Numbered from the stretch's first letter, positions 1,336 to 37,411 are shown. The stretch is DNA of 64,000 bases from Eubacteriales bacterium (GCA_045586845.1 JAZNBB010000079.1:1180-65179), one strand, 5' to 3'. Notes: generated by a model from the letters alone, not told the origin. A program made the numbers and translations.

Positions 1336-3573
1336 ATGAAAAAGTTACTCGTTTTGTTGGCACTTTGCATGGTTTTCTCTGTTGTTCTGGTTGCTTGTAA
1401 CAACAACGAAGAGCCCGAAGAAACCCCCGCAGAGTCCACCGAAGCTCCCTCCGAGACCGAGTCCGAGTCCGAGTCTGAGACTGAGACCGAGACCGAGACC
1501 GAAACCGAGACTGAGACCGAGTCTGAGTCCGAGTCTGAGTCCGAAACCGAGACCGATCCCGTTCCCGAGATCGATCCCAGCGAACCCGTATTCCTGTTCA
1601 GCGCTGCTGATATCGTTTCCACCGCTACCGGTGCTTCCGACATTGCAAGCGCAGTTGCAAGCGAAGACGGTTCTTACGCAACACTGACCAACGGCACTGT
1701 AGGTGACCCCTACTTCACCTTCCGTGGCATGAACAAGAATGCTCGTTACATTGCCATCAAGTACCGTTCCACCGTTGAAGGTGCTTCCTTCAACCTGTTT
1801 GCAGGCTCCACCGGTGAGAATGCTGACGGTAATGGCGATATGCTTGCTCCTCAGGCATACGTTACCGACGGTGAGTGGAACCTCGCTATCGTTGACCTGG
1901 ATCCCGCTGAGAAGGTAAACGAAGAATGGCTGCTGACCTTCGTTCGTTACGACTTCTACACCGAAGGCACCGAGCAGTCCATCGACGTTGCTTGGATCGG
2001 TGCATTCAACTCTCCCAAGTACGCTTCTGATTACTTCATGAGCACTGCTTGCGTTGGTCTCAACGATGAAGCTGCAGGCCTCAATCGTTGGTCCTTCGAC
2101 GGCTTCTACTTCAACGAAGAGCTGTACTTTGCAGAGGATGGCGGCGCTGCTGACAAGCTGGCTGCACAGAACAACATCGTTCCCGTAAACTACGGCACCA
2201 ATTGCTACAACGTTGGTTTCCGCGGTTGGGTATCCTTCAAGCAGACTGTTGATGCATTCGGCTACTACATCGCAGGCGTGAATGCAAACGTCGTTTACGA
2301 TGAATTCAAGCAGGACAGACCTGACCTTGTAGCTGCAGGTATTGAAAACGGCACCGGCTATAACATCGTCGTTCCCGTTGCTGACCTTGGCTACGGCGAG
2401 CACTACGTAAGCATCTACGCTAAGCTGGCTGACGGCACTGTTGTTAAGGTATATGAGATCTGCCTCAACAAGCTCAACCTGACTGTTGACACCGATACCA
2501 ACTTCATGGTATCCATCGACCACGTAAACGGCAAGGGCCCCTACAACGCTGAGACCGGCGACTGGGCTGCTAACTATGAGGGCATCGGCGGCACCTCTAT
2601 GGGCAAGATCGATGCATCTGTTGACCTCAAGACCAACGACAAGAACGGCATTCTGACCTTTGGCGGTTGGTGCGGCGTTGGCGGCGGTGTAAACCGTTAC
2701 GTTTGGTCCATTGACGGCGTCAACTGGATGGAAATCGTTTCCGGCGGTGTTGACGGTGAGCCTCTTGACGGCTACTACAACGGTCTGAACACCGAAGAAG
2801 GCATGACCTCCACCAAGAACGGTATGTTCGGTGGTGAGAACATGATCCAGATCGACCTCTCCATCTTCCCCGCAGGCGCACAGGGCACCATTCTGCTGGG
2901 CGCGATCCCCGAGAAGAACATCAATTCCGTTATCGTGATCTGCGAGCTGGCTAACGTTACCGTTGCTCCTGTTGTTGAGACCATCTGGTACGACGGCGAA
3001 AACGGCACCTTTACCGTTCCCGCAAGCTTTGAGACCAAGTTCGTTGCAAGAAACGTAGCAGGTCAGATCCTCAAGATCGAAAATGCTTTCAACTTTGTTG
3101 TAACCGCAACCAACGTATACACCGGTCAGTCTGTTGTTCTGCAGCCCAATATGCTGGGCACCATCGAGCAGGAGATTCCCGAAGATTGGGCTATGATCGA
3201 ACTGACTGTTGAAAACGTTACCGAGGAAGCTGTTGAAGTGACCGTTGCTTTTGAAGTACCCGCTTCTCCCTGCCTGACCTTGGGTGACAACGTTGTTACC
3301 GTTACCGTATCCGGCTACTATGCATACGGCGCTGACATGGAGTTCACCGCTGAAGAAGCAGGCACTTATGCTTTCTCTCTGACCGATGATTCCGACGAAG
3401 GTGAGCTGTACTACTGGGAAGCTCCCCACTACGGTTGGATCGAAGAGCTGCCTTTCGTCATCGAGCTTGAGGCAGGTCAGACCATCATCGTCAGCGTTTC
3501 CACCACCAACTACTTCATGGCTGAGGGTGGCGAAGGCTCCGTTGACGTTGACGTTTTCGTTGCAAAGATCTGA
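1336..3573 (+). CDS. Surface lipoprotein, paralogue 1: lipobox, Thr/Ser-Glu linker, one DPY-KYR module and two GW modules (function unknown)
   Basis: N-terminus MKKLLVLLALCMVFSVVLVAC carries the lipobox LVAC. A GGA-rich RBS precedes the ATG. The linker is (ET/ES)n. The module runs GDPYFTF..YIAIKYRS..DGEWNLAIVDL..VRYDF..IDVAWIGAF. A strong terminator lies downstream. Confidence 0.85.
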   Translation: MKKLLVLLALCMVFSVVLVACNNNEEPEETPAESTEAPSETESESESETETETETETETETESESESESETETDPVPEIDPSEPVFLFSAADIVSTATGASDIASAVASEDGSYATLTNGTVGDPYFTFRGMNKNARYIAIKYRSTVEGASFNLFAGSTGENADGNGDMLAPQAYVTDGEWNLAIVDLDPAEKVNEEWLLTFVRYDFYTEGTEQSIDVAWIGAFNSPKYASDYFMSTACVGLNDEAAGLNRWSFDGFYFNEELYFAEDGGAADKLAAQNNIVPVNYGTNCYNVGFRGWVSFKQTVDAFGYYIAGVNANVVYDEFKQDRPDLVAAGIENGTGYNIVVPVADLGYGEHYVSIYAKLADGTVVKVYEICLNKLNLTVDTDTNFMVSIDHVNGKGPYNAETGDWAANYEGIGGTSMGKIDASVDLKTNDKNGILTFGGWCGVGGGVNRYVWSIDGVNWMEIVSGGVDGEPLDGYYNGLNTEEGMTSTKNGMFGGENMIQIDLSIFPAGAQGTILLGAIPEKNINSVIVICELANVTVAPVVETIWYDGENGTFTVPASFETKFVARNVAGQILKIENAFNFVVTATNVYTGQSVVLQPNMLGTIEQEIPEDWAMIELTVENVTEEAVEVTVAFEVPASPCLTLGDNVVTVTVSGYYAYGADMEFTAEEAGTYAFSLTDDSDEGELYYWEAPHYGWIEELPFVIELEAGQTIIVSVSTTNYFMAEGGEGSVDVDVFVAKI
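1453..1554 (+). repeat. In-frame hexanucleotide GAG-WCN repeat encoding (ET/ES)17
   Basis: Read directly as GAG ACC / GAG TCC units: ET x1, ES x3, ET x7, ES x4, ET x2. Confidence 0.9.
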
Positions 3574-3610
3574 TTTGCTGAAAACTGACACACAATAAGG
3601 CTACATATTG

Positions 3611-3640
3611 GCAGCCGCCCACATGGGCGGCTGCTTTTTT
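3611..3640 (+). terminator. Rho-independent terminator
   Basis: GCAGCCGCCC-ACAT-GGGCGGCTGC followed by TTTTTT. Confidence 0.85.
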
Positions 3641-3918
3641 GTAAAACGAAAGCTGCGCGACCGGTTATGAGAGGATACTTATCAGAACGCGTCCGCGGCG
3701 GGAAGGGAAAGATCTACCTACTGCCCTGTCGGTCAAAAAATTTAAAAATATCCTGCTTGCTTAACCGAAAATGCAGCAAAATTTTATTTTTATGCTAATG
3801 ATTGGGCATTTTTTTATTTCGAGTCTGTTTTTATAGTGATATTGAACAATTATTATTTGTAATGATTGTATAAACTGCCTATTTTGTGGTTGTTTATGTA
3901 TAATTTCACAAATTTTTG

Positions 3919-3947
3919 TTGCAAATTTCAAAGCTTTGTGATACAAT
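3919..3947 (+). promoter_or_regulatory. Sigma-A type promoter of surface lipoprotein 2
   Basis: TTGCAA, a 17-nt spacer, then TACAAT with TG at -15/-14. It sits in an AT-rich upstream region and is homologous to 1256..1284. Confidence 0.6.
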
Positions 3948-4008
3948 ATGGTATACCTATCCCTAACGTTAGGTAAAAATTATATTCATGAAAGGAAAAA
4001 ATGACATC

Positions 4009-6612
4009 ATGAAAAAGTTACTCGTTTTGTTGGCTCTTTGCATGGTGTTCTCTGTTGCTCTGGTTGCATGTAATAATGAGCCCGATGAGCCTGTAGAATC
4101 CACGCCTGAGTCCTCCGAAGCCCCCTCTGAGACTGAGTCTGAGGTTCCCACCGAGACTGAGTCTGAAACCGAAACCACAACCGAAACCGAGACTGAGTCC
4201 GAGACTGAGTCCGAGTCCGAGTCCGAGTCCGAAACCGAGCCTCCCGTTCCTGTATTCGAAGGTAACTGGCACGCATCCGTAGACTCTTTCTTGTACTGTG
4301 TAAATGACGACTTCTCTGACGTCGTAGCATTTACAGGTGCAAACACCAACAGCACCATCGGTACCACCATTACCAATGCTGCAAACGAGACTCTTGCTTC
4401 CGTAACTGCTAACTACGTTTACTTTGACAACGGTTGGCTCGCAGTTGACGGTTATGCTATTGAAAACTGGGCTGTTAGCATCTACGCAGAAGACGGCACT
4501 CTGCTCAAGACCGTTGCTCTGACACTCAGAGATGCTGAAGAGGGCGTTGTAAACCACGTTTCTCAGAACATGCACTACGCTGAAGGCACCGTTTCTCACA
4601 GAGTAGGCCAGCTTGATGCTGAGATCATTTCTCTGAAGGAATTCCATAACCAGAACGTTACCGTTGTTTACTCCGTTGACGTTGTCGGCACTGAGTTCAC
4701 CATTGATCTCGTTAAGCTCGACGTAGCTGTTCCTCTTGACCCCAATGCTCCCGTTGCATTTGTTACCGGCGCTTCCATGTACCCCGATATCACCGGCGGT
4801 TCTAATTTCAACAAGGATAATTTTGTTGTCGCTGCTGATGGTTCCTACCTTACCGTTGACACCATCGGTCAGGGTGACCCCTTCTACACTATTGCTGCTC
4901 TCAACGCTAAGGGTTACGTTGCAACTCACATTGCTATTAAGTACAGATCCACATCCACCTACACCGATGCCGAAATGTTCGTAGGCTCCGGTGCAGGCCG
5001 CTCCGGCAATGGCGACAACGTCAGATATACGCTGGTTTGTGACGGCAAATGGCAGCTCGCTGTCGTTGACGTATCTGCACTTTCTGCTATTACTGACAAC
5101 GTAATTAACTACGTAAGCTGGGATCCCTTTGCAGGTGCTGCTGACGCTACCATGGACGTTGCTTACATCGCTCTGTTCACTTCCGCTGAAGCAGCTGTTG
5201 CTTACGACGCTAAGTTCGCTGACGTTTACGTTGACACTCTCAACGTTCCCACCTCTGATTGGGGAGTAACCGGTCACCGTCAGGGCGTTCAGGACGCTAC
5301 CGATGGCATGGTCGCTGCAGGCGGCGTTGAAGCCGGCGCTCTGCTGCACCAGGGTTACATTTCCCTTGGCAACATCAACCTTGCTGAAATGTCCAAGGTT
5401 GTTATCTTCTACGGTGTTGACGGCTCTCAGGTTACCATTGACCTGCACGCTGCTGCTGTTAACAACCGCATCATGCTGACCAGCGCTGACCAGGCTATGA
5501 CCAACTCTCCCACTGAGGACGTTATCCTTGCCGGTGCTACCTACACCGAGCTCGGTTGGGCAGTTCATGCCATCGAGATCGATCTGACCGGTGTTGATTA
5601 CAACGGTCCCGTTTACGTAACCTACGACACTCTGCCCGGCACCTTCATGCTGATTAGCTCTGTTGAGTTTATCTACGATCCTAACTACGTTGCTCCCGAA
5701 GAGCCCGAAGCTCCCGCAGAAGATCCCTTCTACGCAGTAAGCTTCTACCAGGCTAATAAGGAAGCTACCTACTACTTCACCGGCGCTATGGACGGTTACT
5801 ACCTCGCAACCTCCACCAACCCCGCTGATGCTGCAAAGGTTTACATCGAGACTCACGAAGAGGGTCTGAGAATGTACGTTCTGGTTGACGGCGTTAAGAC
5901 CTACGTAGAGATCTACGAGTATGAGAATAACGGCACTATGAAGGGCGGCGTTCACATGACCACCGAGCCCACCACCTTCTTCGTATTGAATGAAGAGGCT
6001 GGCACTTACGTTACTGATTTGGGTGCAACCGGTATCTTCTACCTGGGTACCTACAATAACTACACCACCGTTAGCGCTTCCAACATTTCCTTCATCACCG
6101 GCGACAACGCTTCCAAGGTTGGCGTATCTCAGTTCCCCATTGAGTGGACCGCATATCCCGAAGCAGTTGAGCCCGAAGAGCCCGCGGCTCCTTCTTACGT
6201 TGACAAGGCTACTGCAGGCATGATCGGCGAATCTTGCGATACCGTTACTCTGAATGCAGGTATGTACTTTGCGGAAGATGGCAATGCTTACGCTAAGCTC
6301 GAAGCAGTTGAAAACCACCTGACCATCAAGGTTGGTGACGTGATCGGCTTCAGAGGCTGGATTGGCTTCCCTCAGGCATTTGATCAGTTCGGCGTTATTA
6401 TCAATGACGGTGAGTTCCTTGGCGGCGAGTACAAGCAGGCTACTGAGGAGATCATTTACACCCTCGCAGGTGAAAATGCATCCAGATACCACGTCACCGT
6501 TGATACTGCCGGTGTTGCCGCAGGTGATTACAAAGTAGCTTGGGGCGCAAAGCTGGCTGACGGTACTGTTGTAGTATTCTACACCGTTACCATTACCGTT
6601 GAGGCTGCTTAA
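4009..6612 (+). CDS. Surface lipoprotein, paralogue 2: lipobox, Thr/Ser-Glu linker, DPY-KYR module, GW modules (function unknown)
   Basis: The ORF opens at 3988, but the ATG at 4009 reproduces the RBS and start context of paralogue 1. It gives MKKLLVLLALCMVFSVALVAC. The module runs GDPFYTI..HIAIKYRS..DGKWQLAVVDV..VSWDPF..MDVAYIALF. Confidence 0.85.
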   Translation: MKKLLVLLALCMVFSVALVACNNEPDEPVESTPESSEAPSETESEVPTETESETETTTETETESETESESESESETEPPVPVFEGNWHASVDSFLYCVNDDFSDVVAFTGANTNSTIGTTITNAANETLASVTANYVYFDNGWLAVDGYAIENWAVSIYAEDGTLLKTVALTLRDAEEGVVNHVSQNMHYAEGTVSHRVGQLDAEIISLKEFHNQNVTVVYSVDVVGTEFTIDLVKLDVAVPLDPNAPVAFVTGASMYPDITGGSNFNKDNFVVAADGSYLTVDTIGQGDPFYTIAALNAKGYVATHIAIKYRSTSTYTDAEMFVGSGAGRSGNGDNVRYTLVCDGKWQLAVVDVSALSAITDNVINYVSWDPFAGAADATMDVAYIALFTSAEAAVAYDAKFADVYVDTLNVPTSDWGVTGHRQGVQDATDGMVAAGGVEAGALLHQGYISLGNINLAEMSKVVIFYGVDGSQVTIDLHAAAVNNRIMLTSADQAMTNSPTEDVILAGATYTELGWAVHAIEIDLTGVDYNGPVYVTYDTLPGTFMLISSVEFIYDPNYVAPEEPEAPAEDPFYAVSFYQANKEATYYFTGAMDGYYLATSTNPADAAKVYIETHEEGLRMYVLVDGVKTYVEIYEYENNGTMKGGVHMTTEPTTFFVLNEEAGTYVTDLGATGIFYLGTYNNYTTVSASNISFITGDNASKVGVSQFPIEWTAYPEAVEPEEPAAPSYVDKATAGMIGESCDTVTLNAGMYFAEDGNAYAKLEAVENHLTIKVGDVIGFRGWIGFPQAFDQFGVIINDGEFLGGEYKQATEEIIYTLAGENASRYHVTVDTAGVAAGDYKVAWGAKLADGTVVVFYTVTITVEAA
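4129..4239 (+). repeat. In-frame GAG-WCN repeat encoding a Thr/Ser-Glu linker
   Basis: GAGACTGAGTCT...GAGTCCGAGTCCGAGTCCGAAACCGAG. Same repeat type as 1453..1554, but with different length and order. Confidence 0.85.
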
Positions 6613-6647
6613 TTTATCATTAAGTAACTTTATATCAAAACAAATTT

Positions 6648-6675
6648 GGGCTCTCCTTCGGGAGAGCCCTTTTTT
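6648..6675 (+). terminator. Rho-independent terminator
   Basis: GGGCTCTCC-TTCG-GGAGAGCCC followed by TTTTTT. Confidence 0.85.
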
Positions 6676-6868
6676 GAGATGATAGGTAAGAGTAAGATGT
6701 GAATAAGTAAAAAGAAAACCCTTTTACAAGGGCGTGCAAAATTAGCGGAGAGTTTATAGTCAGTTGGTTCATATGGGGCAGTTTTGCTCCGCAGTAAACA
6801 AATAATTAACGACGACAGATTTTCCCAAAAATCTGTCATCGTTCGTTATTCGATAAATTGGAATTTGT

Positions 6869-7381: not shown

Positions 7382-7418
7382 TTTTCACTCCATTAAACTC
7401 TTATTTATCGCCAGTTTC

Positions 7419-7615: not shown

Positions 7616-7739
7616 TTTCGCTATCACCATTATACCGCAAATCGGCAGAGAAAACAAGTTCTCTGCCGAAGTTTTCGTGCCGCCTATTTCTCCGATAAGA
7701 ATGCAGAGAGAAGGGTTTTCTTTTGTTTTATGATATTTT

Positions 7740-10403: not shown

Positions 10404-10415
10404 TTTGATACCTTC

Positions 10416-26964: not shown

Positions 26965-26969
26965 CATAT

Positions 26970-27233: not shown

Positions 27234-27234
27234 G

Positions 27235-29691
27235 TCAGTCACGCTTTCTTGTGGTGAATGCGCAGCCAAGCAACAGCAGTACAGCGACAACACTTGCACC
27301 CACCATGCTCTTACAGCCGCTCGGTTCAGCGGGCTCGGGCTGTGCAACGGGCTGCTCGGTAGTAGGTTCTTCGGTTGTGGGAGGTTCGGTCTCGGCAGCT
27401 GCCTGTGCCAGCTCCTCAAGCTTTGCGGTCAATGCTGCCGCATCTGTTTCAATTGCAGCAAGAGCTTCTTGCGCCTGTGTTTGTAATGCTTGCGCGTCTT
27501 CTACCTGATTGGTCAACGCTTGTGCCGATGTATTAGCAGCTTCGATCGAAGCAACACCTGCTTTGATTTTATCAAGCAATGCAACTGCTTCTGCATACAG
27601 TGCAGGAGTTTTTTTGTTGGCATTTTCAAGCTCCTTGGCAGCGTCCAATGCGCCTGTAGCATTTTCTGCCTGTACGGTAGCACTGCTTGCGATACCGTCA
27701 AGTGCTTTCTTGACGTTAAGCACGTCTACCAGCTTTTGCTTGAATGTGCCGAAATCGGCGATACAGCCCTCGGGAATATAGCCCTCAGTCAGCTTTTGCG
27801 CATCTTCTTGTGTCTTGGCGAACGCCAGCATGGAGAAGGTCATGCTCAGACCCTTTTCTACAGTCGGACCGTCAAAAATGTCAAAGCGCAGGTTGTTGAT
27901 TTTGCCTGCCCAACCGGGCTTTCCTGTCATATCAATGATGTGATAGGTAAATTCGTCACCCTTGGGCACTTCAAACCGTACAGTCTGACCGCCAACAGCA
28001 CCCATTGTCGAGCCGCAAGCATAGTAAATAGCCGAGGTGCTGGAGTTCACCTCTCTATCGGTCTTGACACGAAGAACGATATATTTATATTCATCCGCGC
28101 TGATCTGAGAAAGAGAGGTCATATCAAATGCAGCATAGGGGTCATTGCTTTGGGTGTTGAGCTTGATCACCATGCCGCCCTCCTCTGCATCGTAATACGT
28201 ATCGACAGCATTGTGTCCGCCCATAAACTCACTCATCAGCTCACCGCATACGTATTCGGTCGAAATATCCTTGTAGTCAAACAAAGGGTATTCGATGTGA
28301 TCCAGAGGACCCTGTGCTTCGCAAACAGGCTGCTCGTTCCACACAAAGCCAATGCCGTTGATCACGCCGCGCACTGAGCTGCCTATGATATTGCCCGCAT
28401 CATCCTTAAGGGGATCGGAGCCTTTGTTTCTTGCAACGTAGGTAGCACCACTGTCTGCCTCGTTCATGGAAACAAATGTGGCAGAACCGCCGCCGTCCAT
28501 ATAAAATACGCTGTTATAGCCCAGCTCCTGGCAGAACTGTACGCCCTTGGTAAAGTTCAAGCCCGCATACTTGCCGTGCTGCTGAGAGTTGATTGTCAGC
28601 ATCATGACTTTACCGTCGTTTTTATATCCGATCAACGTGGTGGGATATTCCGAATTATTGCCGTTGGAGGAAAAGATCTTGCCGTCATTGAGCACGATCA
28701 TATGGCCGCCGATAGCATCCTCCACGTTTTGCCAAAGCTCTGTGTTGCCCAGCTTGTCGGTTAAAGCAAGAGAGAAGGATACTGTATCACCCACGGCAAA
28801 ATGATTTTTGAGTGTATCGATCTTGTTGCCGCGCGCGGTCAGCACGATATTTTTCTCATTGAAGGTGGGTCTTGTCGAGGAGTTTGCAGGATAGATCGCC
28901 TTGACCGTTCCGCTGACCTTGCCGTCAAGCGTAAATGCGGAAGACTCCACTTCGATCTCGATCTCGTAAGCGTCCGAGAGAGCATAGTTGGTGTCGTTGC
29001 AGCGGTAGTTATATACGATCAGGGAGTTCCATGCGGGCAGGCGGTTGATACCGTCAACCGCAGCGGTATAGTTTTTTGTCTCATTTTGGATCGAAATATC
29101 CACTACGGGAATACCCACAAGTGGCTGATTGGTCGCGGTGATACCAAACGATGCTTTGTCAGGGCTGGTCGTGCCCTTTTCAGCGTTGGTGGCAACGTAG
29201 TTTTCCATACCGATCTGTTGGGTTGCCCAGATCTCCCCGTCGATCATGGTAAAGCCGCGCGGAACTTTCAGTACCTTGGTGGTTACCTGTTCGTTGCTGT
29301 GCACGTTTGTCATCCAAAGGTCGCCGTTGACGGCTGCCAGCACGGTTTGACCCGTATGTGCTGCGTTATACGCCTCGGATGCACGCATCATAGTTGCACC
29401 GGATACCATGTAGTCACCGCAGTTGATGACCTCAACAGACAGATTCGTATTTGCAAGATCACCCACGGCAACCAAAACTTCTTTGTCACCGTATGTGCCT
29501 GAAAGCGTGATCTTTTGTATGGTCACACCTGTTTTCGTGCCATCCGACAGCGTAACCTCCTCGGTCTCTCGTCCGGTCTCGCCGTCAAGTGTGCCAACGG
29601 GATCGGAAGGCTCTTCGGCATAAGCGATCAAAGGGAGAAGAACTCCCAGGCAAAGTGTCAGACTCAAAAGAATTATAAAAAACTTTTTCAT
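27235..29691 (-). CDS. Secreted phosphodiester glycosidase-like protein: DPY-KYR module, coiled-coil stalk, Gly-Cys C-terminal tail
   Basis: The signal peptide is MKKFFIILLSLTLCLGVLLPLIAYA. The NAGPA/DUF2233-like pattern is LAAVNGDLW ... TTLIGYKNDGKVMMLTI ... YNSVFYMDGGGSATFV. The module runs NDPYAAF..YKYIVLRVKT..NNLRFDIF. The protein ends SGCKSMVGASVVAVLLLLGCAFTTRKRD. Confidence 0.8.
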   Translation of the reverse strand: MKKFFIILLSLTLCLGVLLPLIAYAEEPSDPVGTLDGETGRETEEVTLSDGTKTGVTIQKITLSGTYGDKEVLVAVGDLANTNLSVEVINCGDYMVSGATMMRASEAYNAAHTGQTVLAAVNGDLWMTNVHSNEQVTTKVLKVPRGFTMIDGEIWATQQIGMENYVATNAEKGTTSPDKASFGITATNQPLVGIPVVDISIQNETKNYTAAVDGINRLPAWNSLIVYNYRCNDTNYALSDAYEIEIEVESSAFTLDGKVSGTVKAIYPANSSTRPTFNEKNIVLTARGNKIDTLKNHFAVGDTVSFSLALTDKLGNTELWQNVEDAIGGHMIVLNDGKIFSSNGNNSEYPTTLIGYKNDGKVMMLTINSQQHGKYAGLNFTKGVQFCQELGYNSVFYMDGGGSATFVSMNEADSGATYVARNKGSDPLKDDAGNIIGSSVRGVINGIGFVWNEQPVCEAQGPLDHIEYPLFDYKDISTEYVCGELMSEFMGGHNAVDTYYDAEEGGMVIKLNTQSNDPYAAFDMTSLSQISADEYKYIVLRVKTDREVNSSTSAIYYACGSTMGAVGGQTVRFEVPKGDEFTYHIIDMTGKPGWAGKINNLRFDIFDGPTVEKGLSMTFSMLAFAKTQEDAQKLTEGYIPEGCIADFGTFKQKLVDVLNVKKALDGIASSATVQAENATGALDAAKELENANKKTPALYAEAVALLDKIKAGVASIEAANTSAQALTNQVEDAQALQTQAQEALAAIETDAAALTAKLEELAQAAAETEPPTTEEPTTEQPVAQPEPAEPSGCKSMVGASVVAVLLLLGCAFTTRKRD

Positions 29692-31853
29692 GACTGATCT
29701 CCTTTTTTGATTTTATTTTTTATGAATACAACAAAAGTCCAAGGTAAAAGCGCACAAAGAGGTATGGTGAGAATGCTCTTACAGCCTGAAGCATTCTCAT
29801 TTTGTTCAAATTGTTGGGGAGGGATATATTCCAGTCCCGGACCCTGCGTAGGGATCTCAATGGTGGAAATTTCTGTTTCTGACGGAAGGGACTCGGGTTC
29901 AACGGTAACTGGGCCTTTGTCGGAATCAATACCGTTTTCCGCGGCGTACGCTTCCCATGCGCCAACATCCTGGAAAAACAGCATATCGGCAAGGCACACG
30001 CGCTGTCCTGCATTGATCTGACTGGAAAAATCCAGGCGCATACCCAAAATCTCATCAGTCCAAGCCTCTCTGCCTGCCATTTCGTAGACAAGATATTCCC
30101 ATTCTCCGCCTTCATAGTTTGCGCCGACTGCACGCGTGCCTTGGGCAAAATCCAAACCGCCCGAATAGTAATACAGGACAAATCCCTTGCCCTGGATCTT
30201 TTTGTCTGACTGGATGCGAAGTACGATCACACCGTAGTCTTCGGCGCGCAGCATGGGCAGTCCGGTCGTGGCTGCGTATTGTTGCAGGCTGAAGCTGACA
30301 AAGGGATCATTAGTGGTCTCGGTGGCTTGCAGTATCAGATGTCCGTATTCGTCAAAGCTGTAAGAGGATTGATTTTCACCGCCAAAGCAATCTGCCAGCG
30401 ACTGGTCAAACCAGGTAATGGCATCTGCTTTGCCCGAGGGTGCGCGCCCTTCTTCTGCATATGGGTCTTGAGGTGCTATTCCTTGCTCGTGATATATTTC
30501 CAAAGGTTGTGCGGCTGCTTGCTTTGCGCTTTCTTCGTCGGGATAAAAGCCGATCGAAGCAATGTTGGCATAGTCTGAGGTATTGGCATGTCCGTCTATA
30601 AAATCAAAGCGCATACCATATACCGTACCTGTCCAATGCTCTTCTTTACATAAAGGGATCACGTAGGTATGCCACTTTCCATCGTTAGTTGGCTGAAAGG
30701 CAACGTGACTCTCTCCGTGTGGTCCGTGGATATCACCTGCGCACAAAAACAGGCGGAAATGCCCCTCTGAATTGGTGCGAGGTGTTTGCAGCGTCATAAC
30801 TGCATATCGGTAATGATCGGCAGTGATCTGTGCATCCTGGGTATCTTTGAGATATTTGTTCAGGTTGAAATAGATATATGGGTCATTTGTGTCTGCGGTA
30901 GGGTACAGGCGCATATAGGTGCCTACGGTATCGTCGGACATAAGGGAGGCATCCACGGCGTTTGCACCACTCAGATATTCGTAAGGGGTGGCAGTCATGT
31001 GCACGGTCAGCTCGCCGCGGTAGTAGTCGGGCACGGTGGAATAAAAGCGAATGCGGGAGATCGCGGTCTGCTCTGCACAGCTCAACAAAAGCTTACCCAT
31101 GTATTGCGCATCATTCAGATCAACAATTGCGGTATAGGAACCGTCTTGGTTTTGTACGGGTGCGGATGAATTTGCCTGAAAGGGAAGGACGGAGGATCGC
31201 TCGCTATGCAGCGTCAGAACTGTGTTTTTATCGAGTATGAACTCTGCATATTGATAATCGCGCAAGTTATAAGCATCCAGAGAAAGCTCGGTATTTGCTT
31301 GCAGGGTCAGTATACCGTTCTGCGCACCGAATGCAGACAAATTGAGCTCTCGGTATGCCATGGTTTCCGTATCGGTATCTCCGATGGATACGTCCAGCAT
31401 GGCGAGCACCTCGAGTACGTTACCCTGATCGGTATATCCGCGCAAAAATATGTCGTAATTGCCGCGCTTCAGACCGGAGACGTCAATGTTCAGGTGAAAT
31501 CCTGCGGTTTTGTAGGTGTTTGGGCAAATGCTTTTCAAATCGTCTCGCTGTACAATTGCCTTGGTGCTTCGCTGCCAGGTCCTGCCACCGTCTAAAGTGT
31601 ATGCATATGCCTCCATTTTTTGCTCGGTCTTGATCCAACCTGCCAGAGTCAGCACGGGATCTGTACCGTGTTTGATGTTTTTCAGTATGGCGGGCATACC
31701 TGTGGCGGAGGTGCTGCTTGGGTGATCGACCGTGACTGAGTAATCTTGTACCGCTGAAGCAGAGATCCACGGGCAAAGTGCACCGGCAAGCAGCGAAAGA
31801 CATAATGCTGTGCATAATATCCGATAGAATTTTATGTAAAAGGATTCTTTCAT
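29688..31853 (-). CDS. Secreted protein: one GW module, two DPY-KYR modules, Gly-Cys C-terminal tail (function unknown)
   Basis: An RBS AAGGAG precedes the start and a signal peptide ends ISASA. The modules run TNDPYIYFN..YRYAVMTLQT..GKWHTYVI..GMRFDFI..IASIGFY and TNDPFVSFS..YGVIVLRIQS..GEWEYLVY..GMRLDF. The protein ends SGCKSILTIPLCALLPWTFVVFIKNKIKKGDQS. An ATGA overlap links it to the next gene. Confidence 0.8.
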   Translation of the reverse strand: MKESFYIKFYRILCTALCLSLLAGALCPWISASAVQDYSVTVDHPSSTSATGMPAILKNIKHGTDPVLTLAGWIKTEQKMEAYAYTLDGGRTWQRSTKAIVQRDDLKSICPNTYKTAGFHLNIDVSGLKRGNYDIFLRGYTDQGNVLEVLAMLDVSIGDTDTETMAYRELNLSAFGAQNGILTLQANTELSLDAYNLRDYQYAEFILDKNTVLTLHSERSSVLPFQANSSAPVQNQDGSYTAIVDLNDAQYMGKLLLSCAEQTAISRIRFYSTVPDYYRGELTVHMTATPYEYLSGANAVDASLMSDDTVGTYMRLYPTADTNDPYIYFNLNKYLKDTQDAQITADHYRYAVMTLQTPRTNSEGHFRLFLCAGDIHGPHGESHVAFQPTNDGKWHTYVIPLCKEEHWTGTVYGMRFDFIDGHANTSDYANIASIGFYPDEESAKQAAAQPLEIYHEQGIAPQDPYAEEGRAPSGKADAITWFDQSLADCFGGENQSSYSFDEYGHLILQATETTNDPFVSFSLQQYAATTGLPMLRAEDYGVIVLRIQSDKKIQGKGFVLYYYSGGLDFAQGTRAVGANYEGGEWEYLVYEMAGREAWTDEILGMRLDFSSQINAGQRVCLADMLFFQDVGAWEAYAAENGIDSDKGPVTVEPESLPSETEISTIEIPTQGPGLEYIPPQQFEQNENASGCKSILTIPLCALLPWTFVVFIKNKIKKGDQS

Positions 31854-32002
31854 TAAGTCGCTCCTTTTGCTTACAATATCTCATTTTATATTATACAATA
31901 AAAAATACTGTCTGCAAAGGGGGATGGCGTCATTTTGGGGATTTGACCAAAATTTCGGTGCATTGCACAAAAAGACTCTTTTTGGAGTGAAACAAAAGAA
32001 AA

Positions 32003-32053
32003 CCCTTGCTTCATGGCGTTGTGTCCTTAGGAAGGCAACGCCATGAACAAGGG
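32003..32053. terminator. Long hairpin terminator downstream of the 277-aa surface protein gene
   Basis: CCCTTGCTTCATGGCGTTG ... CAACGCCATGAACAAGGG, flanked by A-runs and T-runs on both strands. Confidence 0.7.
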
Positions 32054-32095
32054 TTTTAAAATGTTCAATTCAAATTGTTTCAGTCAGACAAAGGA

Positions 32096-32926
32096 TCAGT
32101 CCTTCTTCTTAATGCAAACTGCGCCCAGAGCAACGATAGCAACAACTGCACCGATGCTGATGATGCTGCCGCAACCCTTTTCTTCCTCTACGGGCTTGGT
32201 AGCAGAGGGCTTCTTGGTGGACTCTTTCTCAGTTTCTTCCGCAGTGGTTTCCTCAGACTCCTCTACAGTGGTCTCCTCGGTCTCTTCCTGATCCAGACCT
32301 GCGTATGCAATTGCTTCGTCCTCGGTAGCAAACAGAGCTACCTCGTACAGATATATCATAGTGTCCTCTTCAGCACCTACGGGGTCAAATCTGAACTGAT
32401 TGTAGACACCTTCGCAGTCGCCGGTCAGATCATAGATGATGTACTCGATCTCGCCGGAGGCATCGCAAGGATAGTCAGTATTGGTGGAGACGCCGGGCGT
32501 TGCAGCAGTCACTTCGCCTGCACAGTAAAACAGCTCGAAATCGTCAACATAGCCATCTATCTTAAGCTTGATGACAACATAGGGATATTCCTGAGAATCA
32601 ACCTTTTCAAGTCCTGCCTTACTGATGTAAGTGGACCAGTTGATGGTAACGAAGGGGTCACCGATATCGGTGAGTCTCAGTCTTGCGCCTTCCCATTCGG
32701 GCTTGTAATACGTCTTGTTAATACCGGTAGGATTGCTGAGGATCTTCCATAACTTAGCATCCTCGTTAAAGGTCAAAAGAGTGTTGGAATAAGCGGTAGC
32801 TTCGCCTTCAGCTGCAGTGGTTTCTTCGCCTTCAGCTGCGGTGGTCTCTTCTGTAGCAACAGCAACCAGAGCAAAGCAGGAAGCAGCCAGCAGCATGGAG
32901 AGAACCAGAGCCAGTAATTTTTTCAT
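32096..32926 (-). CDS. Small secreted protein: signal peptide, single DPY-KYR module, acidic linker, Gly-Cys C-terminal tail
   Basis: The ATG at 32926 gives MKKLLALVLSMLLAASCFALVAVA, with RBS AAAGGAG. The module runs GDPFVTINW..YPYVVIKLKI..NQFRFDPV..IYLYEVALF. The protein ends KGCGSIISIGAVVAIVALGAVCIKKKD. Confidence 0.85.
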   Translation of the reverse strand: MKKLLALVLSMLLAASCFALVAVATEETTAAEGEETTAAEGEATAYSNTLLTFNEDAKLWKILSNPTGINKTYYKPEWEGARLRLTDIGDPFVTINWSTYISKAGLEKVDSQEYPYVVIKLKIDGYVDDFELFYCAGEVTAATPGVSTNTDYPCDASGEIEYIIYDLTGDCEGVYNQFRFDPVGAEEDTMIYLYEVALFATEDEAIAYAGLDQEETEETTVEESEETTAEETEKESTKKPSATKPVEEEKGCGSIISIGAVVAIVALGAVCIKKKD

Positions 32927-32967
32927 GGTAAAAATCTCCTTTACACTATATATTGTTTGCACTTATC

Positions 32968-32996
32968 ATTTTATACCATTTTCAGAAAAATGTCAA
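32968..32996 (-). promoter_or_regulatory. Promoter of the 277-aa surface protein gene
   Basis: On the minus strand: TTGACA, a 17-nt spacer, then TAAAAT. Confidence 0.6.
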
Positions 32997-33037
32997 CAGA
33001 AACCAAGTAATTTTTTGTTTTTTTATATAATACTGTG

Positions 33038-33068
33038 AAAAAAGGGCTGACACTTGAAGCGTCAGCCC
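33038..33068 (-). terminator. Rho-independent terminator of the 304-aa surface protein gene
   Basis: GGGCTGACAC-TTGAA-GCGTCAGCCC with a T-run on the minus strand. It is homologous to the terminator at 34112..34142. Confidence 0.75.
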
Positions 33069-33095
33069 TGAAATACTGCGTATTTTCGGTATCAA

Positions 33096-34010
33096 TCAGT
33101 CTTTCTTTTTGAAGCAAATTGCACCGAGAAGTACCATGGAAAGCATTGCGACCACACTTACGCTTGCGGATGCATTGCAACCAAGCAGCGTGGGGAGAAG
33201 ACCTTGAAATCCTTTAAGAGGAATATCCATGAAATCTGAGAGCAGGTCTTCGGGGTCTTTCATTTCGGGTATGACATCCGGCTGTACATTTACCTCGGGG
33301 GTCGGAACGGGATGCTCTGTCATTTGACCGGAGGTAATGACCTCCGCGGTCTCCCATACAATGTCTTCGGTCTCGGTTTCGGGCGCGACGGTTTCATGAA
33401 CGGTTGTCTCGGTCTCTTTCCGATCAAAACCTGCGTATGCAATTGCTTCTTCCTCTGTAGCAAACAGTGCCAACTCGTACAGGTATATGACGGTGTCCTC
33501 ATCAGCACCCATGGGGTCTATTCTGAACATATTATAGTTGCCTTCGCAATCGTCTGTCAGGTCGTAGATGATGTATTCGATCTCACCCGAACACTCACAA
33601 GGATAGTCGGTTGTAGTACCGTAACCACCTGTAGGAACTGTAATTTCACCTGCGCAGTAGAACATCTCCATATCCTCTATGTAGCCTTCTACCTTGAGCT
33701 TGAATACGACAAAGGGATATTCCTGAGAATCAACCTTTTCAAGTCCTGACTTGTTGATGTAAGCAGACCAGTTGATAGTAACGAAGGGGTCACCGATGTC
33801 GGTGATCTTCAGTCTTGCGCCTTCCCACTCGGAGGAGTAGTAGGTTTTGTTAATACCGTTGGGAGAGGTAATGACCTTCATACTTTTTGCATCATCGTTA
33901 AAGACAAGCAGTGTGTTGGAAAAAGTATTCTCTTCCGTAGCAACAGCAGCCAAGGTAAAGCAGCCGGTAAGCAGCAGCAATGAAAGAACAAACGTTAGAA
34001 ATTTTTTCAT
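33096..34010 (-). CDS. Small secreted protein: signal peptide, single DPY-KYR module, acidic linker, Gly-Cys C-terminal tail (paralogue of 32096..32926)
   Basis: N-terminus MKKFLTFVLSLLLLTGCFTLAAVA. The module runs GDPFVTINW..YPFVVFKLKV..NMFRIDPM..IYLYELALF. The protein ends LGCNASASVSVVAMLSMVLLGAICFKKKD. Confidence 0.85.
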   Translation of the reverse strand: MKKFLTFVLSLLLLTGCFTLAAVATEENTFSNTLLVFNDDAKSMKVITSPNGINKTYYSSEWEGARLKITDIGDPFVTINWSAYINKSGLEKVDSQEYPFVVFKLKVEGYIEDMEMFYCAGEITVPTGGYGTTTDYPCECSGEIEYIIYDLTDDCEGNYNMFRIDPMGADEDTVIYLYELALFATEEEAIAYAGFDRKETETTVHETVAPETETEDIVWETAEVITSGQMTEHPVPTPEVNVQPDVIPEMKDPEDLLSDFMDIPLKGFQGLLPTLLGCNASASVSVVAMLSMVLLGAICFKKKD

Positions 34011-34061
34011 AGTAAAAAGCTCCCTTGCGAAATTTTTTTTGCAGCCCGGATCATTGGTATT

Positions 34062-34090
34062 ATTTTAAGCTACTTTGGGAGATTTGTCAA
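34062..34090 (-). promoter_or_regulatory. Promoter of the 304-aa surface protein gene
   Basis: On the minus strand: TTGACA, a 17-nt spacer, then TAAAAT. Confidence 0.6.
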
Positions 34091-34111
34091 CAGCAAACAA
34101 GCTTTTTTATC

Positions 34112-34142
34112 AAAAAAGGGCTGACGCTTTATGCGTCAGCCC
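34112..34142 (-). terminator. Rho-independent terminator of the 1079-aa surface protein gene
   Basis: GGGCTGACGC-TTTAT-GCGTCAGCCC with TTTTTT on the minus strand. Confidence 0.8.
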
Positions 34143-34171
34143 TGACAAGGGAATATTTTATCGGTATTTGA

Positions 34172-37100
34172 TCAGTCCTTTTTCTTGAAGCAAAGCGCAC
34201 CAAGAGCAATGACCGAGGTCAGAGCAACGATTGCGCCTGTAGCCAGAGCGGACTTGCAGCCCTTCTTTTCCTCTGTAGGCTCTGTCTCGTCGCCGTTATT
34301 TGTATCGGGAGTATCAGTGCCGTCGGGAGCGTCGGTGCCATCAGTACCGTCGGGAGCATCGGTGCCGTCGGGAGCATCGGTGCCATCGGTGCCGTCGGGA
34401 GCACCGGTGTCGGTATCGGAGCCGGTATCAACAGGAATCTCGGTGTAAACAGCATTTACAACAACGTCCTTGCCCATTTCAAACTCTTCCCAAACGCCGG
34501 TGAAGCCTTCCTTAGCGGGAACAGAGGGAGCAGCGATGGACTCGGTGCCTTCTCTGTAGCGAACCTCCTTCACTACAACGTCATCAGCCTTAAAGGTGAC
34601 GGTGTAGAACTTGGGAGCAGTCCAGACCTGTGCGTCGAATGCTTCAACGTCGCCGGTGGTATTGAAGAAGCCGATGTAAGCTACGTCAATGGAACCGGGG
34701 TAACGCAGGAAGTCGAAACGGAAGTAGTCAAGAGAAACGGTATTGTCCTCGTTGACCTGCAGTTTACCGGGATAACCTGCAGCGGTTGCAACGTCGATCA
34801 GGTTGACGTATGCCAGGTGCCATTCACCGTCGTTCTGAATGGGATTGACAAACTGCAACCAGTCGTCACCGGACAATTCACCCTTACCGATGAAGCACTC
34901 GTTGTGTATCTCGTGTGCCAGATCGGAGACGGTTCTGTATCTGATAGCCAGGATCGGACCAACGGTCAGGTTTGCACCGTGCAACAGGAAGAAGCTGGGG
35001 TCGCCGCCGTTGCAGGACAGGGTCATGTAGCCCTCGTCGTAGTTGTAAACGCCTGCAGCATCGGTTACGCCCATGGTGGTGAACAAGCCCTCACCGTCAA
35101 AGATGAAGCCTTCAACAGTGGAAGGATCAACAGGAGTTGCGGGAGCTGCTTCATCGGCAGCGGCAGCAGCCTCTGCAGCAGCAGCGTTGGAGTAGAATGC
35201 GATGTAGGAAATGTCAATGGAGCCGGAAGAACCGACGATGGGGTCAAAACGGAAGTTGGTCAGAGTCTGACCGTACAGGTCGCCCCAAATAGCGGAAGCA
35301 TCCACGATGGTGGTGTGCCATTCGCCGTCGTTGACATAAGTGATGTCTGTGTGAGTCTTTTCAAAGGGGTTAGCCCAGCCATAGCCGCCGGAGGTGCCGG
35401 TAAAGAATTCACCCGATGCAGCTGCGGTGGTTCTGTACTTGATTACGATATAGCGCAGCTGGTTTGCAAAACCGGTAGGCTGTACGTTGAACATGAAGTA
35501 GGGGTCATCGCCCGTAATATTGAAGGTTACGTAGCCTTCAGTGGTCTTGGTGTTAGCAATTTCAACATGATTGGGAGCGCCTGCGGGGCTGGTAAAGCCA
35601 TATGCAGCAGCGGCGTCCTCGAGCCACAGAGAGTAGTCATATACGAACGTGGGGCTCATGGAGTGCATATTGCCGATGTCAACCAGAGAATCGGTAGCTG
35701 CGTCGTAAATGGTCTCGTTCTTGCAGATTCTGTTGAGCATACCTGCAACGTTCGCGTTTGCGGAAGCCTCACGCAGAGAGGGGGACTTGTAAACGCCAAC
35801 GTATGCGATATCGATAGAGCCTGCAAAGCCGATTGCGAGATCAGCGATAGCGTCCAGCTCTGCGGTATCCAGATCAATGTATGCAAAGTTCCACAGGCCG
35901 TCGGTGGTCAGAGCTACGGGCTCGCAGCCATTGACGGTCAGGGTAGCATCAGCGGTATTGGTTCTGTAAATAACAGCAACATACTTGAATGCGGGGTTGA
36001 GGTCAGCGCCAACGTTGGTGATGGCTGCGCCCTCTGCGGTTGCGACTGCCTTAATGTATCCGGCAGTTGTCTTAATGATCGAAGCGTCCTGCGTGGGCAG
36101 GAAGTCGATCTCCTCTGCACCGGTGGTCAGATCCCAGATAAGCTGAGCGGGATTTGCTGCTACGTAGTAGCCCATAAAGCCGCCCTCTACCTTTTCGCCG
36201 TTTACAAAGAACTCGACGTCAGGGTTGACTGCGGTGTCAGCAGCCTTACCGGTCAGCTGGCCGTCAATGGGAGTGAACTGCAGGTAGAGCTCGCCGGACA
36301 GTGTGCCTGCGGGAACCTCGATGGTGGCATCAGCATTGTCTGCAATGCCTGTGACCTCGGTAGTCCAAACGGGTCTTACAGAGGTGGTGGTAGCGATGTC
36401 GGTGTTCCAAGCGAAAGCTTCAACCTTCATCTTGTCGGTGGAGTTTGCGTAGTTAGCAAGACTTTGAACAGTGAAGGAGTACAGTCCGTTGTATGCATTG
36501 ATATGTACGCCGAAGGAGCTTGTGCCGGTGCCGCCGTTAAACAGGGCAGCAGTGGTGCCTTCGCCGACTGCCACGGTGGAGATGTCCATGTGGATGGTGC
36601 CGGTCAGGGTCACGCTCTGATAATTATCGTTTCTTGCCTGTACAGCAACGGTGTGAATACCGCCTGCCAGGGTGTTGGTGGGAATGGTCAGGTTTTCAAA
36701 AGCACCGCTCTCGCCTGCTTCGTAAGCAGCCTCGGTCCAGGTGCCGCCATTGATGGAGTAGTACCAGGAGGTCCATGCGCCGTCCGGAATATTCAGCGTA
36801 CCGCCAAGAACTACATTCTCACCGATATTGACGGAGGGAATACCGTTTGCAAAGGGATTGGTGGTCAGATTGAGCTCGTACTGCCCTGCTTCAAGCTCCT
36901 GAGATTTGAAAAACTCAATGGACTTGATGTCAATGGTGCAGCCGGAAGCGTTGCCGCCGGTAAAGGGATCAAGACGGAACAGTTGCAGCGCGGGAGAGTG
37001 CTGCGGGTTTTGCGTCAGATCCAGGATCAAGGTGTTCCAGTTGCCGTCATTTACGTAATCGTATTGCAGGCAAGCGAAATCACCGGAGTTGAGGAAGTAT

Positions 37101-37411
37101 TCGCCCATAGTGCACGCGGAGGTGGTTCTGTAGGTGATCTTCATAAACTGACTTTGACCGATATCTGCAGCCTTTGCGTTATAGTAAACGTAAGGGTCAG
37201 TACCGGAGGTGGTAAAGGTGGCGTATTCGGTGCCGTCTTCGTCCGACCCCTTGGCGATCGTCAACTGGTTTGAGCCGGTTCCGGTCGTAGCCAGGTCATC
37301 GGGGGTCAGTGCAGCAAGCACCGTGCCTTCGGCTGATGCAGTCAGCGCAAGTCCGGTCATGCAGGAAGCCAACAGCAAAGCAGAAAGCAAAAAGGATAAT
37401 GCTTTTTTCAT
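34172..37411 (-). CDS. Large secreted protein: three or four DPY-KYR modules, a GW-like module, a Listeria-Bacteroides-type repeat, (DGT)n linker, Gly-Cys C-terminal tail
   Basis: The signal peptide MKKALSFLLSALLLASCMTGLALTASA follows RBS AAGGAG. The modules begin GTDPYVYYN..MKITYRTT, GDDPYFMFN..YIVIKYRTT..GEWHTTIV..FRFDPI..IDISYIAFY and GGDPSFFLL..ILAIRYRT..GEWHLAYV..FRFDFL..IDVAYIGFF. The repeat pattern is YTVTFKADD...PAKEGFTGVW. The protein ends KGCKSALATGAIVALTSVIALGALCFKKKD. Confidence 0.85.
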   Translation of the reverse strand: MKKALSFLLSALLLASCMTGLALTASAEGTVLAALTPDDLATTGTGSNQLTIAKGSDEDGTEYATFTTSGTDPYVYYNAKAADIGQSQFMKITYRTTSACTMGEYFLNSGDFACLQYDYVNDGNWNTLILDLTQNPQHSPALQLFRLDPFTGGNASGCTIDIKSIEFFKSQELEAGQYELNLTTNPFANGIPSVNIGENVVLGGTLNIPDGAWTSWYYSINGGTWTEAAYEAGESGAFENLTIPTNTLAGGIHTVAVQARNDNYQSVTLTGTIHMDISTVAVGEGTTAALFNGGTGTSSFGVHINAYNGLYSFTVQSLANYANSTDKMKVEAFAWNTDIATTTSVRPVWTTEVTGIADNADATIEVPAGTLSGELYLQFTPIDGQLTGKAADTAVNPDVEFFVNGEKVEGGFMGYYVAANPAQLIWDLTTGAEEIDFLPTQDASIIKTTAGYIKAVATAEGAAITNVGADLNPAFKYVAVIYRTNTADATLTVNGCEPVALTTDGLWNFAYIDLDTAELDAIADLAIGFAGSIDIAYVGVYKSPSLREASANANVAGMLNRICKNETIYDAATDSLVDIGNMHSMSPTFVYDYSLWLEDAAAAYGFTSPAGAPNHVEIANTKTTEGYVTFNITGDDPYFMFNVQPTGFANQLRYIVIKYRTTAAASGEFFTGTSGGYGWANPFEKTHTDITYVNDGEWHTTIVDASAIWGDLYGQTLTNFRFDPIVGSSGSIDISYIAFYSNAAAAEAAAAADEAAPATPVDPSTVEGFIFDGEGLFTTMGVTDAAGVYNYDEGYMTLSCNGGDPSFFLLHGANLTVGPILAIRYRTVSDLAHEIHNECFIGKGELSGDDWLQFVNPIQNDGEWHLAYVNLIDVATAAGYPGKLQVNEDNTVSLDYFRFDFLRYPGSIDVAYIGFFNTTGDVEAFDAQVWTAPKFYTVTFKADDVVVKEVRYREGTESIAAPSVPAKEGFTGVWEEFEMGKDVVVNAVYTEIPVDTGSDTDTGAPDGTDGTDAPDGTDAPDGTDGTDAPDGTDTPDTNNGDETEPTEEKKGCKSALATGAIVALTSVIALGALCFKKKD
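34301..34429 (-). repeat. In-frame short tandem repeats encoding a (A)PDGTD(GTD) linker
   Basis: GGTGCCGTCGGGAGCATC-type units are reiterated on the plus strand. The translation is DTGSDTDTGAPDGTDGTDAPDGTDAPDGTDGTDAPDGTDTPDT. Confidence 0.8.

Follow-up and report, generated by a model that had tools for sequence, protein, structure and literature searches.

Most likely, the described domains closest to the module reported here are of the CBM11 type. CtCBM11, the family 11 carbohydrate-binding module (CBM) of C. thermocellum Lic26A-Cel5E (1V0A, 2LRO, 6R31), is a beta-jelly-roll appended to an enzyme, and modules of this family occur in cellulosomal proteins of Clostridia. A second domain of this topology lies within megatron, a baseplate protein of the alphaproteobacterial phage vB_DshS-R4C (8GTC chain M), where residues 482-629 were named 'carbohydrate-binding domain' from their CtCBM11-like topology (PMC10276861). 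Here we analysed 64,000 nucleotides of DNA from an Eubacteriales bacterium (GCA_045586845.1 JAZNBB010000079.1:1180-65179; hereafter the window), in which an earlier note had described, from the translations, a module recurring about ten times in seven surface proteins between positions 1,336 and 37,411. On the sequence evidence the repeated unit is one homologous family, present in eleven copies, and we consider it fairly probable that these copies belong to a large new family of CBM-like modules that bind glycans and have no catalytic role.

All seven open reading frames (ORFs) were found as described and are called A to G: lipoproteins 1 and 2 (A, B), the 818-residue glycosidase-like protein (C), the 721-residue protein (D), the two small proteins (E, F) and the 1079-residue protein (G). 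In blastp comparisons A matched B with 34% identity over 160 residues (E 7e-19), C matched both copies in D (D1, E 5e-13; D2, E 7e-13), each time on the module, and A matched four separate stretches of G (E 2e-8 to 2e-6). When the 11 segments were aligned with MAFFT, the DP[YF], Y..I.YR, Gly-rich loop, DGEW, RFD, IDVAYIAFF and acidic-helix anchors fell into a single register; an inconsistent register had been named in the earlier note as grounds for giving up the module. A hidden Markov model (HMM) of the copies, run against all 425 stop-to-stop ORFs of at least 60 residues in the six frames of the window, returned 11 domains, all in the seven ORFs (E 1e-11 to 5e-49), and no 12th copy, the next-best of the 425 ORFs having an E-value of 0.83. 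The count of about ten thus resolves into ten clear copies and one degenerate copy with none elsewhere in the window, and their distribution over A to G (1, 1, 1, 2, 1, 1 and 3+1) is exactly as first read.

Because a scan with a model of all copies is circular, the HMM was rebuilt six times, each time without one protein or without the E/F pair. Ten of the 11 copies were recovered in this way (A 4e-20, B 6e-23, C 2e-17, D1 9e-20, D2 6e-11, E 1e-17, F 2e-16, G1 3e-13, G3 8e-14, G4 3e-4), and the degenerate copy G2 was not detected (E 19) once all G copies were left out of the profile. A further, independent profile was made from 96 instances in unrelated metagenomic proteins plus copy E; it gave E-values of 1e-22 to 4e-39 for ten window copies and of 7e-4 for G2. 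The copies, with their E-values against this profile, are:

1621..2049, plus strand: module copy A, residues 96-238 of lipoprotein 1 (gene 1336-3573), E 7e-30
4786..5220, plus strand: module copy B, residues 267-411 of lipoprotein 2 (gene 3988-6612), E 3e-29
27775..28230, minus strand: module copy C, residues 488-639 of the 818-residue protein (gene 27235-29691), immediately after the NAGPA-like catalytic region, E 6e-35
30504..30980, minus strand: module copy D1, residues 292-450 of the 721-residue protein (gene 29688-31853), E 4e-39
29931..30392, minus strand: module copy D2, residues 488-641 of the same protein, E 1e-22
32288..32743, minus strand: module copy E, residues 74-225 of ORF 32096-32962, E 1e-30
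33420..33875, minus strand: module copy F, residues 46-197 of the 304-residue protein (gene 33096-34010), E 8e-30
36872..37288, minus strand: module copy G1, residues 42-180 of the 1079-residue protein (gene 34172-37411), E 4e-31
35747..36097, minus strand: module copy G2, degenerate and shortened, residues 439-555 of G, lacking the DP[YF] strand region and the RFD strand, E 7e-4 (blastp against A, 2e-6)
35150..35587, minus strand: module copy G3, nearest the consensus, residues 609-754 of G, E 6e-36
34625..35080, minus strand: module copy G4, with a long insertion preceding the RFD strand, residues 778-929 of G, E 4e-24

Protein E probably starts with MKKLL at 32926 (ORF 32096-32926 from there) and then has 276 residues, not the 277 first given; it consists of a signal peptide, the module, an acidic linker and a Gly-Cys tail. 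Its paralogue F is 73% identical within the module, and the statement that these two proteins hold little else was correct, both being a module on a stalk. Apart from this pair, the copies share 13-40% identity (median 21%), and on sequence divergence they are old duplicates, E and F alone being close. The possibility that the recurrence is due to chance or composition, and was merely read into the translations, is refuted by this analysis and has next to no probability left: the leave-one-out and independent-profile E-values reach down to 4e-39, 1,307 library proteins match at E<=1e-10, and two structure models are confident and concordant.

From an alignment in which 19 orthologues and the 10 other window copies were added to copy E, AlphaFold2 predicted an all-beta domain that includes two helices, a short internal one and one at the C-terminus (predicted local distance difference test, pLDDT, 91; predicted template modelling score, pTM, 0.87). 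Copy G3, which is 24% identical to E, gave the same strand order and terminal helix (pLDDT 78.7, pTM 0.77), with just the Gly/Ser-rich loop disordered. Both models are beta-jelly-rolls of 9-11 strands and have the two-sheet antiparallel build and the size (~130-170 residues) of the jelly-roll/galactose-binding-domain-like fold, so that the beta-sandwich suggested in the earlier note was borne out. On these models the module is a two-sheet beta-sandwich of ~10 strands, capped by a C-terminal amphipathic helix ('xxEEA..Y'). Since 2-3 of the beta-strands and, 10-25 residues before the DP motif, conserved G/Y/L columns precede that motif, the domain comprises ~140-150 residues, and the 110-125 residues first assigned to it were too few.

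Foldseek returned 29 and 21 PDB matches at E<=1e-3 for the models of E and G3, respectively, nearly all of them CBMs or lectin-like domains. For E these were CBM6, CBM29, CBM35, CBM86, CBM4 and CBM30 (template modelling, TM, score ~0.5), further GH43-appended CBMs, the Fbs1 sugar-binding domain and the Eph ligand-binding domain; for G3 they were CBM4, CBM6, CBM11, CBM30, CBM86, the GnT-IV lectin domain and CIA30, and mannanase-appended CBMs were also on the list of the two models. TM scores of all PDB matches lay between 0.45 and 0.63 (CBM86, target-normalised, up to 0.66) at 5-18% identity. Among the predicted viral structures of BFVD the matches were tail, fibre and tailspike proteins. Structure prediction for the first of the two small proteins, which had been proposed as a check, placed copy E as a jelly-roll among carbohydrate-binding modules.

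At the sequence level, a profile of 97 instances was compared with 177,635 PDB sequences. The top match was roseophage R4C megatron, residues 508-625 (E 0.005), followed by CtCBM11 (E 0.12), which was covered over nearly the whole domain; the shallow 11-copy profile gave noise alone (lipocalin, peroxiredoxin; E>0.1). Pairwise hhalign of the profile gave a probability of 95% for the megatron segment over 108 of ~145 columns and of 64% for CtCBM11, figures that are optimistic because both segments had been picked as top database matches, the unbiased values being the E-values of 0.005 and 0.12. By analogy, three lines converge on a CBM11-like jelly-roll, with measured ligands for CtCBM11 alone among them, and the models place the module most likely within the jelly-roll CBM fold class, nearest to CBM11-type modules.

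The likeness to CBM11 includes a beta-jelly-roll of similar size, attachment to enzymes and occurrence in Clostridia; the G3 model superimposes on 2LRO, 6R31, 1V0A and 6R3M with TMq 0.59-0.63, a root-mean-square deviation of ~5 A and 14-17% identity, which is a remote and not a family-level resemblance. However, Pfam CBM_11 matched neither the 7 window proteins nor any of the 97 instances (E<=1), CBM11 does not share the signature of the module (DP, Y..I.YR, DGEW, RxD, IDIAYIAFF, terminal helix), and in the HMMER alignment the RxD strand is placed on I-H-F-M of CtCBM11. Megatron is the sole solved structure with a borderline-significant sequence match; it has the DP motif, a DG..hhhD strand and an LRFDF strand in common with the module and is likewise an accessory, outward-facing domain. 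It differs in being inserted in a phage baseplate protein rather than a bacterial surface protein, in an identity of only ~16% and in a function that was assigned from topology alone. The deposited megatron model is backbone-only, and 8GTC was outside the top 50 Foldseek matches of both models. The type-B/C jelly-rolls CBM4, 6, 29, 30, 35 and 86 are of the same fold class and dominate both Foldseek lists, and the highest target-normalised TM score (0.60-0.66) belongs to CBM86 of Roseburia, a gut Firmicute; in contrast, these families reach TM scores of just 0.45-0.6 at 5-16% identity and gave no profile match among PDB sequences or in Pfam.

The earlier note could assign the module to no family, and this also held against the curated libraries Pfam-A 2025, NCBIfam r20 (2026) and PHROGs v4. 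On the full window proteins, Pfam-A and NCBIfam recognised NAGPA (1.2e-16) in the 818-residue protein and otherwise low-complexity noise, and an hmmscan-type check against Pfam gave no confident match of the module to a characterised family. From the relatives described below, 249 full-length instances were taken and reduced to 96 sharing <40% identity, which together with copy E make up the 97. Searched individually with Pfam-A, these were matched by no family in more than 2 of 97 cases, even at E<=1; NCBIfam gave 16 unrelated single matches and no recurring model, and PHROGs a weak 'tail protein' match to one of the 97. Ten relatives that were looked up all lack a name in public sources, and the module is not described in the 2026 ruminococcal cellulosome paper. 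CAZy numbering had reached at least CBM112 by 2026 (PMC13357471), and the module may overlap with a recent CBM family that has neither a Pfam model nor a PDB entry, its newness being relative to Pfam-A, NCBIfam, PHROGs and the PDB. We rejected identity with CBM112, which is a small mannan-binding family of Bacteroidota (PMC13357471), as well as cohesin-like, Ig-like and F5/8 type C identities, which had no support from Pfam or Foldseek.

When 1.84 billion cluster representatives were searched exhaustively with HMMER, 3,531 proteins matched at E<=1e-3, of which 1,307 reached E<=1e-10 and 180 reached E<=1e-30. The best 150 relatives mostly have 2-8 delimitable copies each, and up to 11 matched stretches were found within one relative of 4,372 residues. 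With the 11-copy profile, a word-indexed search for homologues found only close orthologues of protein E, none of them named or with a Pfam domain. The close orthologues of the window proteins come from 'Ruminococcaceae/Oscillospiraceae' metagenome bins. A pattern scan over one genome per species, which was built on four consensus-type copies and is biased to that subtype, found 47 module loci, almost all in metagenome-assembled genomes (MAGs) of uncultured Clostridia, Eubacteriales, Oscillospiraceae or 'Ruminococcus' from the rumen, omasum, caecum, colon or faeces of cattle, sheep, yak, deer, buffalo and rabbit; Margulisiibacteriota and Victivallaceae contributed single outlier loci. The nearest species-representative genome, an Eubacteriales MAG, was the sole nucleotide match, with ~79% nucleotide identity over the gene for G. 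The matching runs in a search of sequencing runs were all DNA with gut or host labels, and no expression evidence was found there; copy G3 had no tblastn match in 50,697 phage genomes.

Conservation was calculated over the 97 instances, which are mutually <40% identical, and is numbered by copy E. The conserved positions are D41 (71%), P42 (68%) and Y43; Y67 (74%), I70, Y72 (64%) and R/K73 (94%); F/Y84 (84%); D108-G109-x-W111 (W111 77%) and H112; D117 (71%), L118 and G124 (78%); R130 (95%) and D132 (90%); I142-D-I-x-Y-I-x-F-F150; and A156 (70%) and Y159. They coincide with the anchors first read by eye. We infer that most of these signature residues are structural, namely the D-P turn, the glycines, W111 and the hydrophobic I-D-I-A-Y-I-A-F-F strand. 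From the alternation of core and near-invariant polar positions along neighbouring strands, F129/F131, I70/Y72 and V114/I116/L118 should face the core, and R130/D132, Y67/K71/R73 and D117 should point outward. The candidate ligand-contacting face, a conserved surface both polar and aromatic like the cleft of a type-B CBM, would be formed by Y67/K71/R73, D117 and R130/D132. The Gly/Ser-rich loop, which varies in length and is modelled with low confidence, is a candidate for setting specificity.

The window is the origin region of a Firmicute chromosome: dnaA, dnaN, recF, gyrB and gyrA lie at 7.7-19.1 kb, followed at 23-27 kb by mreB, PBP2 and maf and, downstream, by lysS, alr, ftsH, tilS, dnaB and gdpP. 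The module genes lie in two groups, the two lipoprotein genes on the plus strand (1336-3573, 3988-6612) and five genes on the minus strand (27235-37411). In relatives the cluster order is lysS, a 108-residue gene, a cohesin-like gene (weak PF00963), E-like, D-like and C-like (NAGPA) genes, an 89-residue gene, Hydrolase_2, maf, mreB and PBP2. Genes F (33096-34010) and G (34172-37411), both on the minus strand, are missing from the otherwise syntenic cluster in three relatives (L048-L050). The comparison points to F, a recent paralogue of E, and the four-module G as a lineage-specific local expansion of module-bearing genes.

In our reading the module is an autonomous extracellular domain of ~145 residues. 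Within the window it occurs on proteins predicted to be secreted and anchored at the surface, alone (E, F), in divergent tandem arrays (D, G) and beside a phosphodiester glycosidase domain (C). The glycosidase-like character first ascribed to the 818-residue protein was corroborated by a match to one Pfam family:

28444..28749, minus strand: best-matched NAGPA stretch (PF09992, phosphodiester glycosidase), residues 315-416 of protein C, E 1.2e-16, 61.8 bits (cutoff 25)

Orthologues of C keep both this domain and its arrangement with the module, and published work on bacterial NAGPA proteins yielded nothing informative. Among 32 large relatives just 11 Pfam families were recognised, most of them in a single protein; partners of the module include F5/8 type C, LamG, GDSL/SGNH, dockerin, SLH, Fn3, InlB B-repeat and phage fibre repeats. 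One relative has the order SGNH esterase, module, dockerin, module (P0175), two combine modules with a dockerin (P0063, P0163), and others have five modules with Fn3 and 3 SLH repeats (P0111), phage tail-fibre repeats with four modules (P0117), or a lipoprotein build with modules and LamG (P0128). By analogy with annotated proteins, such layouts are the usual sites of carbohydrate- or receptor-binding modules.

The two modes of anchoring proposed in the earlier note, lipoboxes on A and B and Gly-Cys tails on C to G, were both recovered. Judged by their sequence pattern ([LVI][ASTVI][GAS]C and a polar mature N-terminus; ...VLVAC followed by NN(N)E...), A and B are predicted lipoproteins. All five proteins C to G end in a tail with the consensus G-C-[KGN]-[SA], ~20 hydrophobic residues and KKKD. 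As read from the translations, these elements are:

1387..1398, plus strand: lipobox L-V-A-C of lipoprotein 1, with an acidic T/E/S-rich linker next
4060..4071, plus strand: lipobox L-V-A-C of lipoprotein 2
27238..27318, minus strand: Gly-Cys tail of C (GCKS, hydrophobic stretch, RKRD)
29691..29786, minus strand: Gly-Cys tail of D (GCKS, hydrophobic stretch, KNKIKKGDQS)
32099..32176, minus strand: Gly-Cys tail of E (GCGS, hydrophobic stretch, KKKD)
33099..33182, minus strand: Gly-Cys tail of F (GCNAS, hydrophobic stretch, KKKD)
34175..34261, minus strand: Gly-Cys tail of G (GCKS, hydrophobic stretch, KKKD)

The lipoprotein build was seen in 45 of the top 150 relatives and the Gly-Cys tail in 26, never together with a classical lipobox; the remainder have other transmembrane tails or carry the module at the extreme C-terminus. 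Further anchors in relatives are dockerins, SLH domains and other transmembrane tails. No sorting-signal model of Pfam or NCBIfam matched the Gly-Cys tail. It has the same tripartite build, an invariant-Cys motif, a hydrophobic helix and a basic cluster, as the Cys-containing MYXO-, JDVT-, Synerg- and CGP-CTERM signals of Haft, but differs from these in its Lys-rich basic cluster and its clostridial lineage, and the Haft signal paper makes no mention of such signals in Clostridia or Firmicutes. A candidate tail-processing enzyme was not found within the 64-kb window. From its sequence features the tail may be an undescribed sorting signal of Clostridia.

The N-termini have peculiarities of their own. 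In the signal peptides of E (~32876-32926), F (~33960-34010) and G (~37361-37411), all on the minus strand, a lipobox-like L-x-[SAG]-C lies in the middle of the hydrophobic region and is followed by ~10 further hydrophobic residues and then an AxA-like cleavage site, an arrangement also present in 13 of the 26 relatives with a Gly-Cys tail. The two lipoprotein signal peptides (1336-1620 and 3988-4270, plus strand) are near-identical (80% over 45 residues) and lead into long acidic (T/S-E)n linkers, which give rise to spurious weak Pfam/NCBIfam matches such as New_glue, PARP and MSCRAMM.

The glycan-binding reading rests on CBMs as the nearest folds, on the sequence links to megatron and CtCBM11, and on layouts that combine enzyme, CBM-like module and dockerin, SLH or phage fibre. 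The earlier proposal of a binding module, possibly for a glycan, is therefore the best supported by fold neighbours, weak sequence links and architectures, and within it the ligand is the part that we infer. At the cell surface, as well as on certain phage fibres, the modules would attach the cell or an appended enzyme to polysaccharide, most likely to plant or microbial glycans of the herbivore gut, and several divergent copies per protein could provide avidity or a range of specificities. Several observations weigh against this reading. The label of the megatron domain itself stems from fold resemblance, the structural matches are all remote (TM 0.45-0.63, 5-18% identity), and the pairwise hhalign values concern preselected segments. 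Domains of this fold can also bind proteins (Eph ligand-binding domain) or act in assembly (CIA30). Copies E and F are without the conserved Trp, and the conserved polar face is derived from strand alternation alone and could be covered by the C-terminal helix. The association evidence comes from few proteins because the module flanks in relatives are mostly unannotated, and the window genes lie among oriC housekeeping genes and not in an operon of carbohydrate-active enzymes or transporters.

A CBM-like fold is compatible with any glycan ligand, and the module might bind a glycopolymer of the cell's own envelope, a secondary cell-wall polysaccharide or teichoic-acid-like polymer, instead of dietary or foreign glycans. 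It would then organise wall proteins and target the NAGPA-type phosphodiester glycosidase, to which it is fused in protein C, to GlcNAc-1-phosphate linkages, and the conserved E-D-C cluster does stand beside a cell-wall hydrolase (Hydrolase_2), maf, mreB and the PBP2-type transpeptidase in the window and in relatives. However, every window protein has a membrane anchor, which would make a wall anchor superfluous, dockerins and phage fibre proteins among the relatives imply foreign targets, and the vicinity of mreB and PBP2 may be plain origin-proximal housekeeping context; we regard an envelope ligand as unlikely. Equally improbable to us is a role in protein-protein contact or self-association, as an adhesin or co-aggregation domain or as the subunit of a surface coat, of which E and F would be the minimal proteins. 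Such a role would fit the presence of CIA30, an assembly factor, and of the Eph receptor ligand-binding domain among the top fold matches, the bare module-on-stalk build of E and F, the cohesin-like conserved neighbour and the adhesin-like giant proteins of 5-11 copies, but carbohydrate binders account for both links at the sequence level and for the majority of the structural neighbours, the order enzyme, module, dockerin is typical of CBMs, and no conserved partner gene is apparent besides the weak cohesin-like neighbour.

Tandem arrays in very long proteins and the many clearly structural residues could also suggest an inert spacer that lifts functional domains off the cell surface. This we hold to be very improbable: as spacers E and F would display nothing, the module is often the terminal domain, low-complexity T/E/S/P linkers already serve as spacers, and near-invariant polar residues of exposed type (R130 95%, D132 90%, R/K73 94%) are unusual for a spacer. 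A wider alternative, which we find doubtful, joins module and anchor. The module would found a binding-domain family that is very large and has gone unrecognised, with a ligand class or specificity of its own or with no glycan binding at all, and would be the principal surface-display unit of uncultured herbivore-gut Oscillospirales; part of the family would be exported through a hitherto undescribed C-terminal Gly-Cys sorting signal of Clostridia; module and anchor together would then form a new surface-display system and not just another CBM. Under the glycan-binding reading that we prefer, what is new here is a large family of a known kind of domain, of solid worth for annotation and moderately surprising.

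Among the major degraders of fibre in herbivore guts are uncultured Oscillospiraceae and Ruminococcaceae, whose giant surface proteins are mostly unannotated. Curating the module as a family would annotate thousands of 'hypothetical' proteins, many of them with 2-11 units. If glycan binding is true, the module would be a new CBM family for CAZy and a pointer to the substrates to which these organisms attach, and the 276-residue protein E is a natural minimal construct. The possible kinship with megatron hints at an exchange of modules between phage receptor-binding proteins and bacterial surface proteins.

Other features of the window touch on the module genes to varying degrees. A secreted protein of 294 residues (37572-38456, minus strand) reads like a cohesin and has no Pfam match at E<=1e-5; its counterpart gene in three relatives (335 residues) gives a weak match to PF00963 Cohesin and is a conserved neighbour of the E/D/C cluster. 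Lipoproteins A and B have a second uncharacterised domain in common (2059-2466 and 6199-6594, plus strand; residues 242-377 of A and 738-869 of B; 36% identity, E 7e-16), which has no Pfam match and, judged by eye, resembles the ends of several relatives, e.g. '...ADGTxVxxYExTLxV'. On the minus strand, ftsH appears to be split into two overlapping ORFs, 49453-50610 and 50433-51578, divided between the N-terminal AAA part and the rest of AAA, lid and peptidase M41, which suggests a frameshift from an assembly error or a pseudogene. Finally, an 805-residue DUF5722 protein (E 5e-56; 44912-47329, minus strand) is encoded near the cluster in the window and in relatives and carries no copy of the module.

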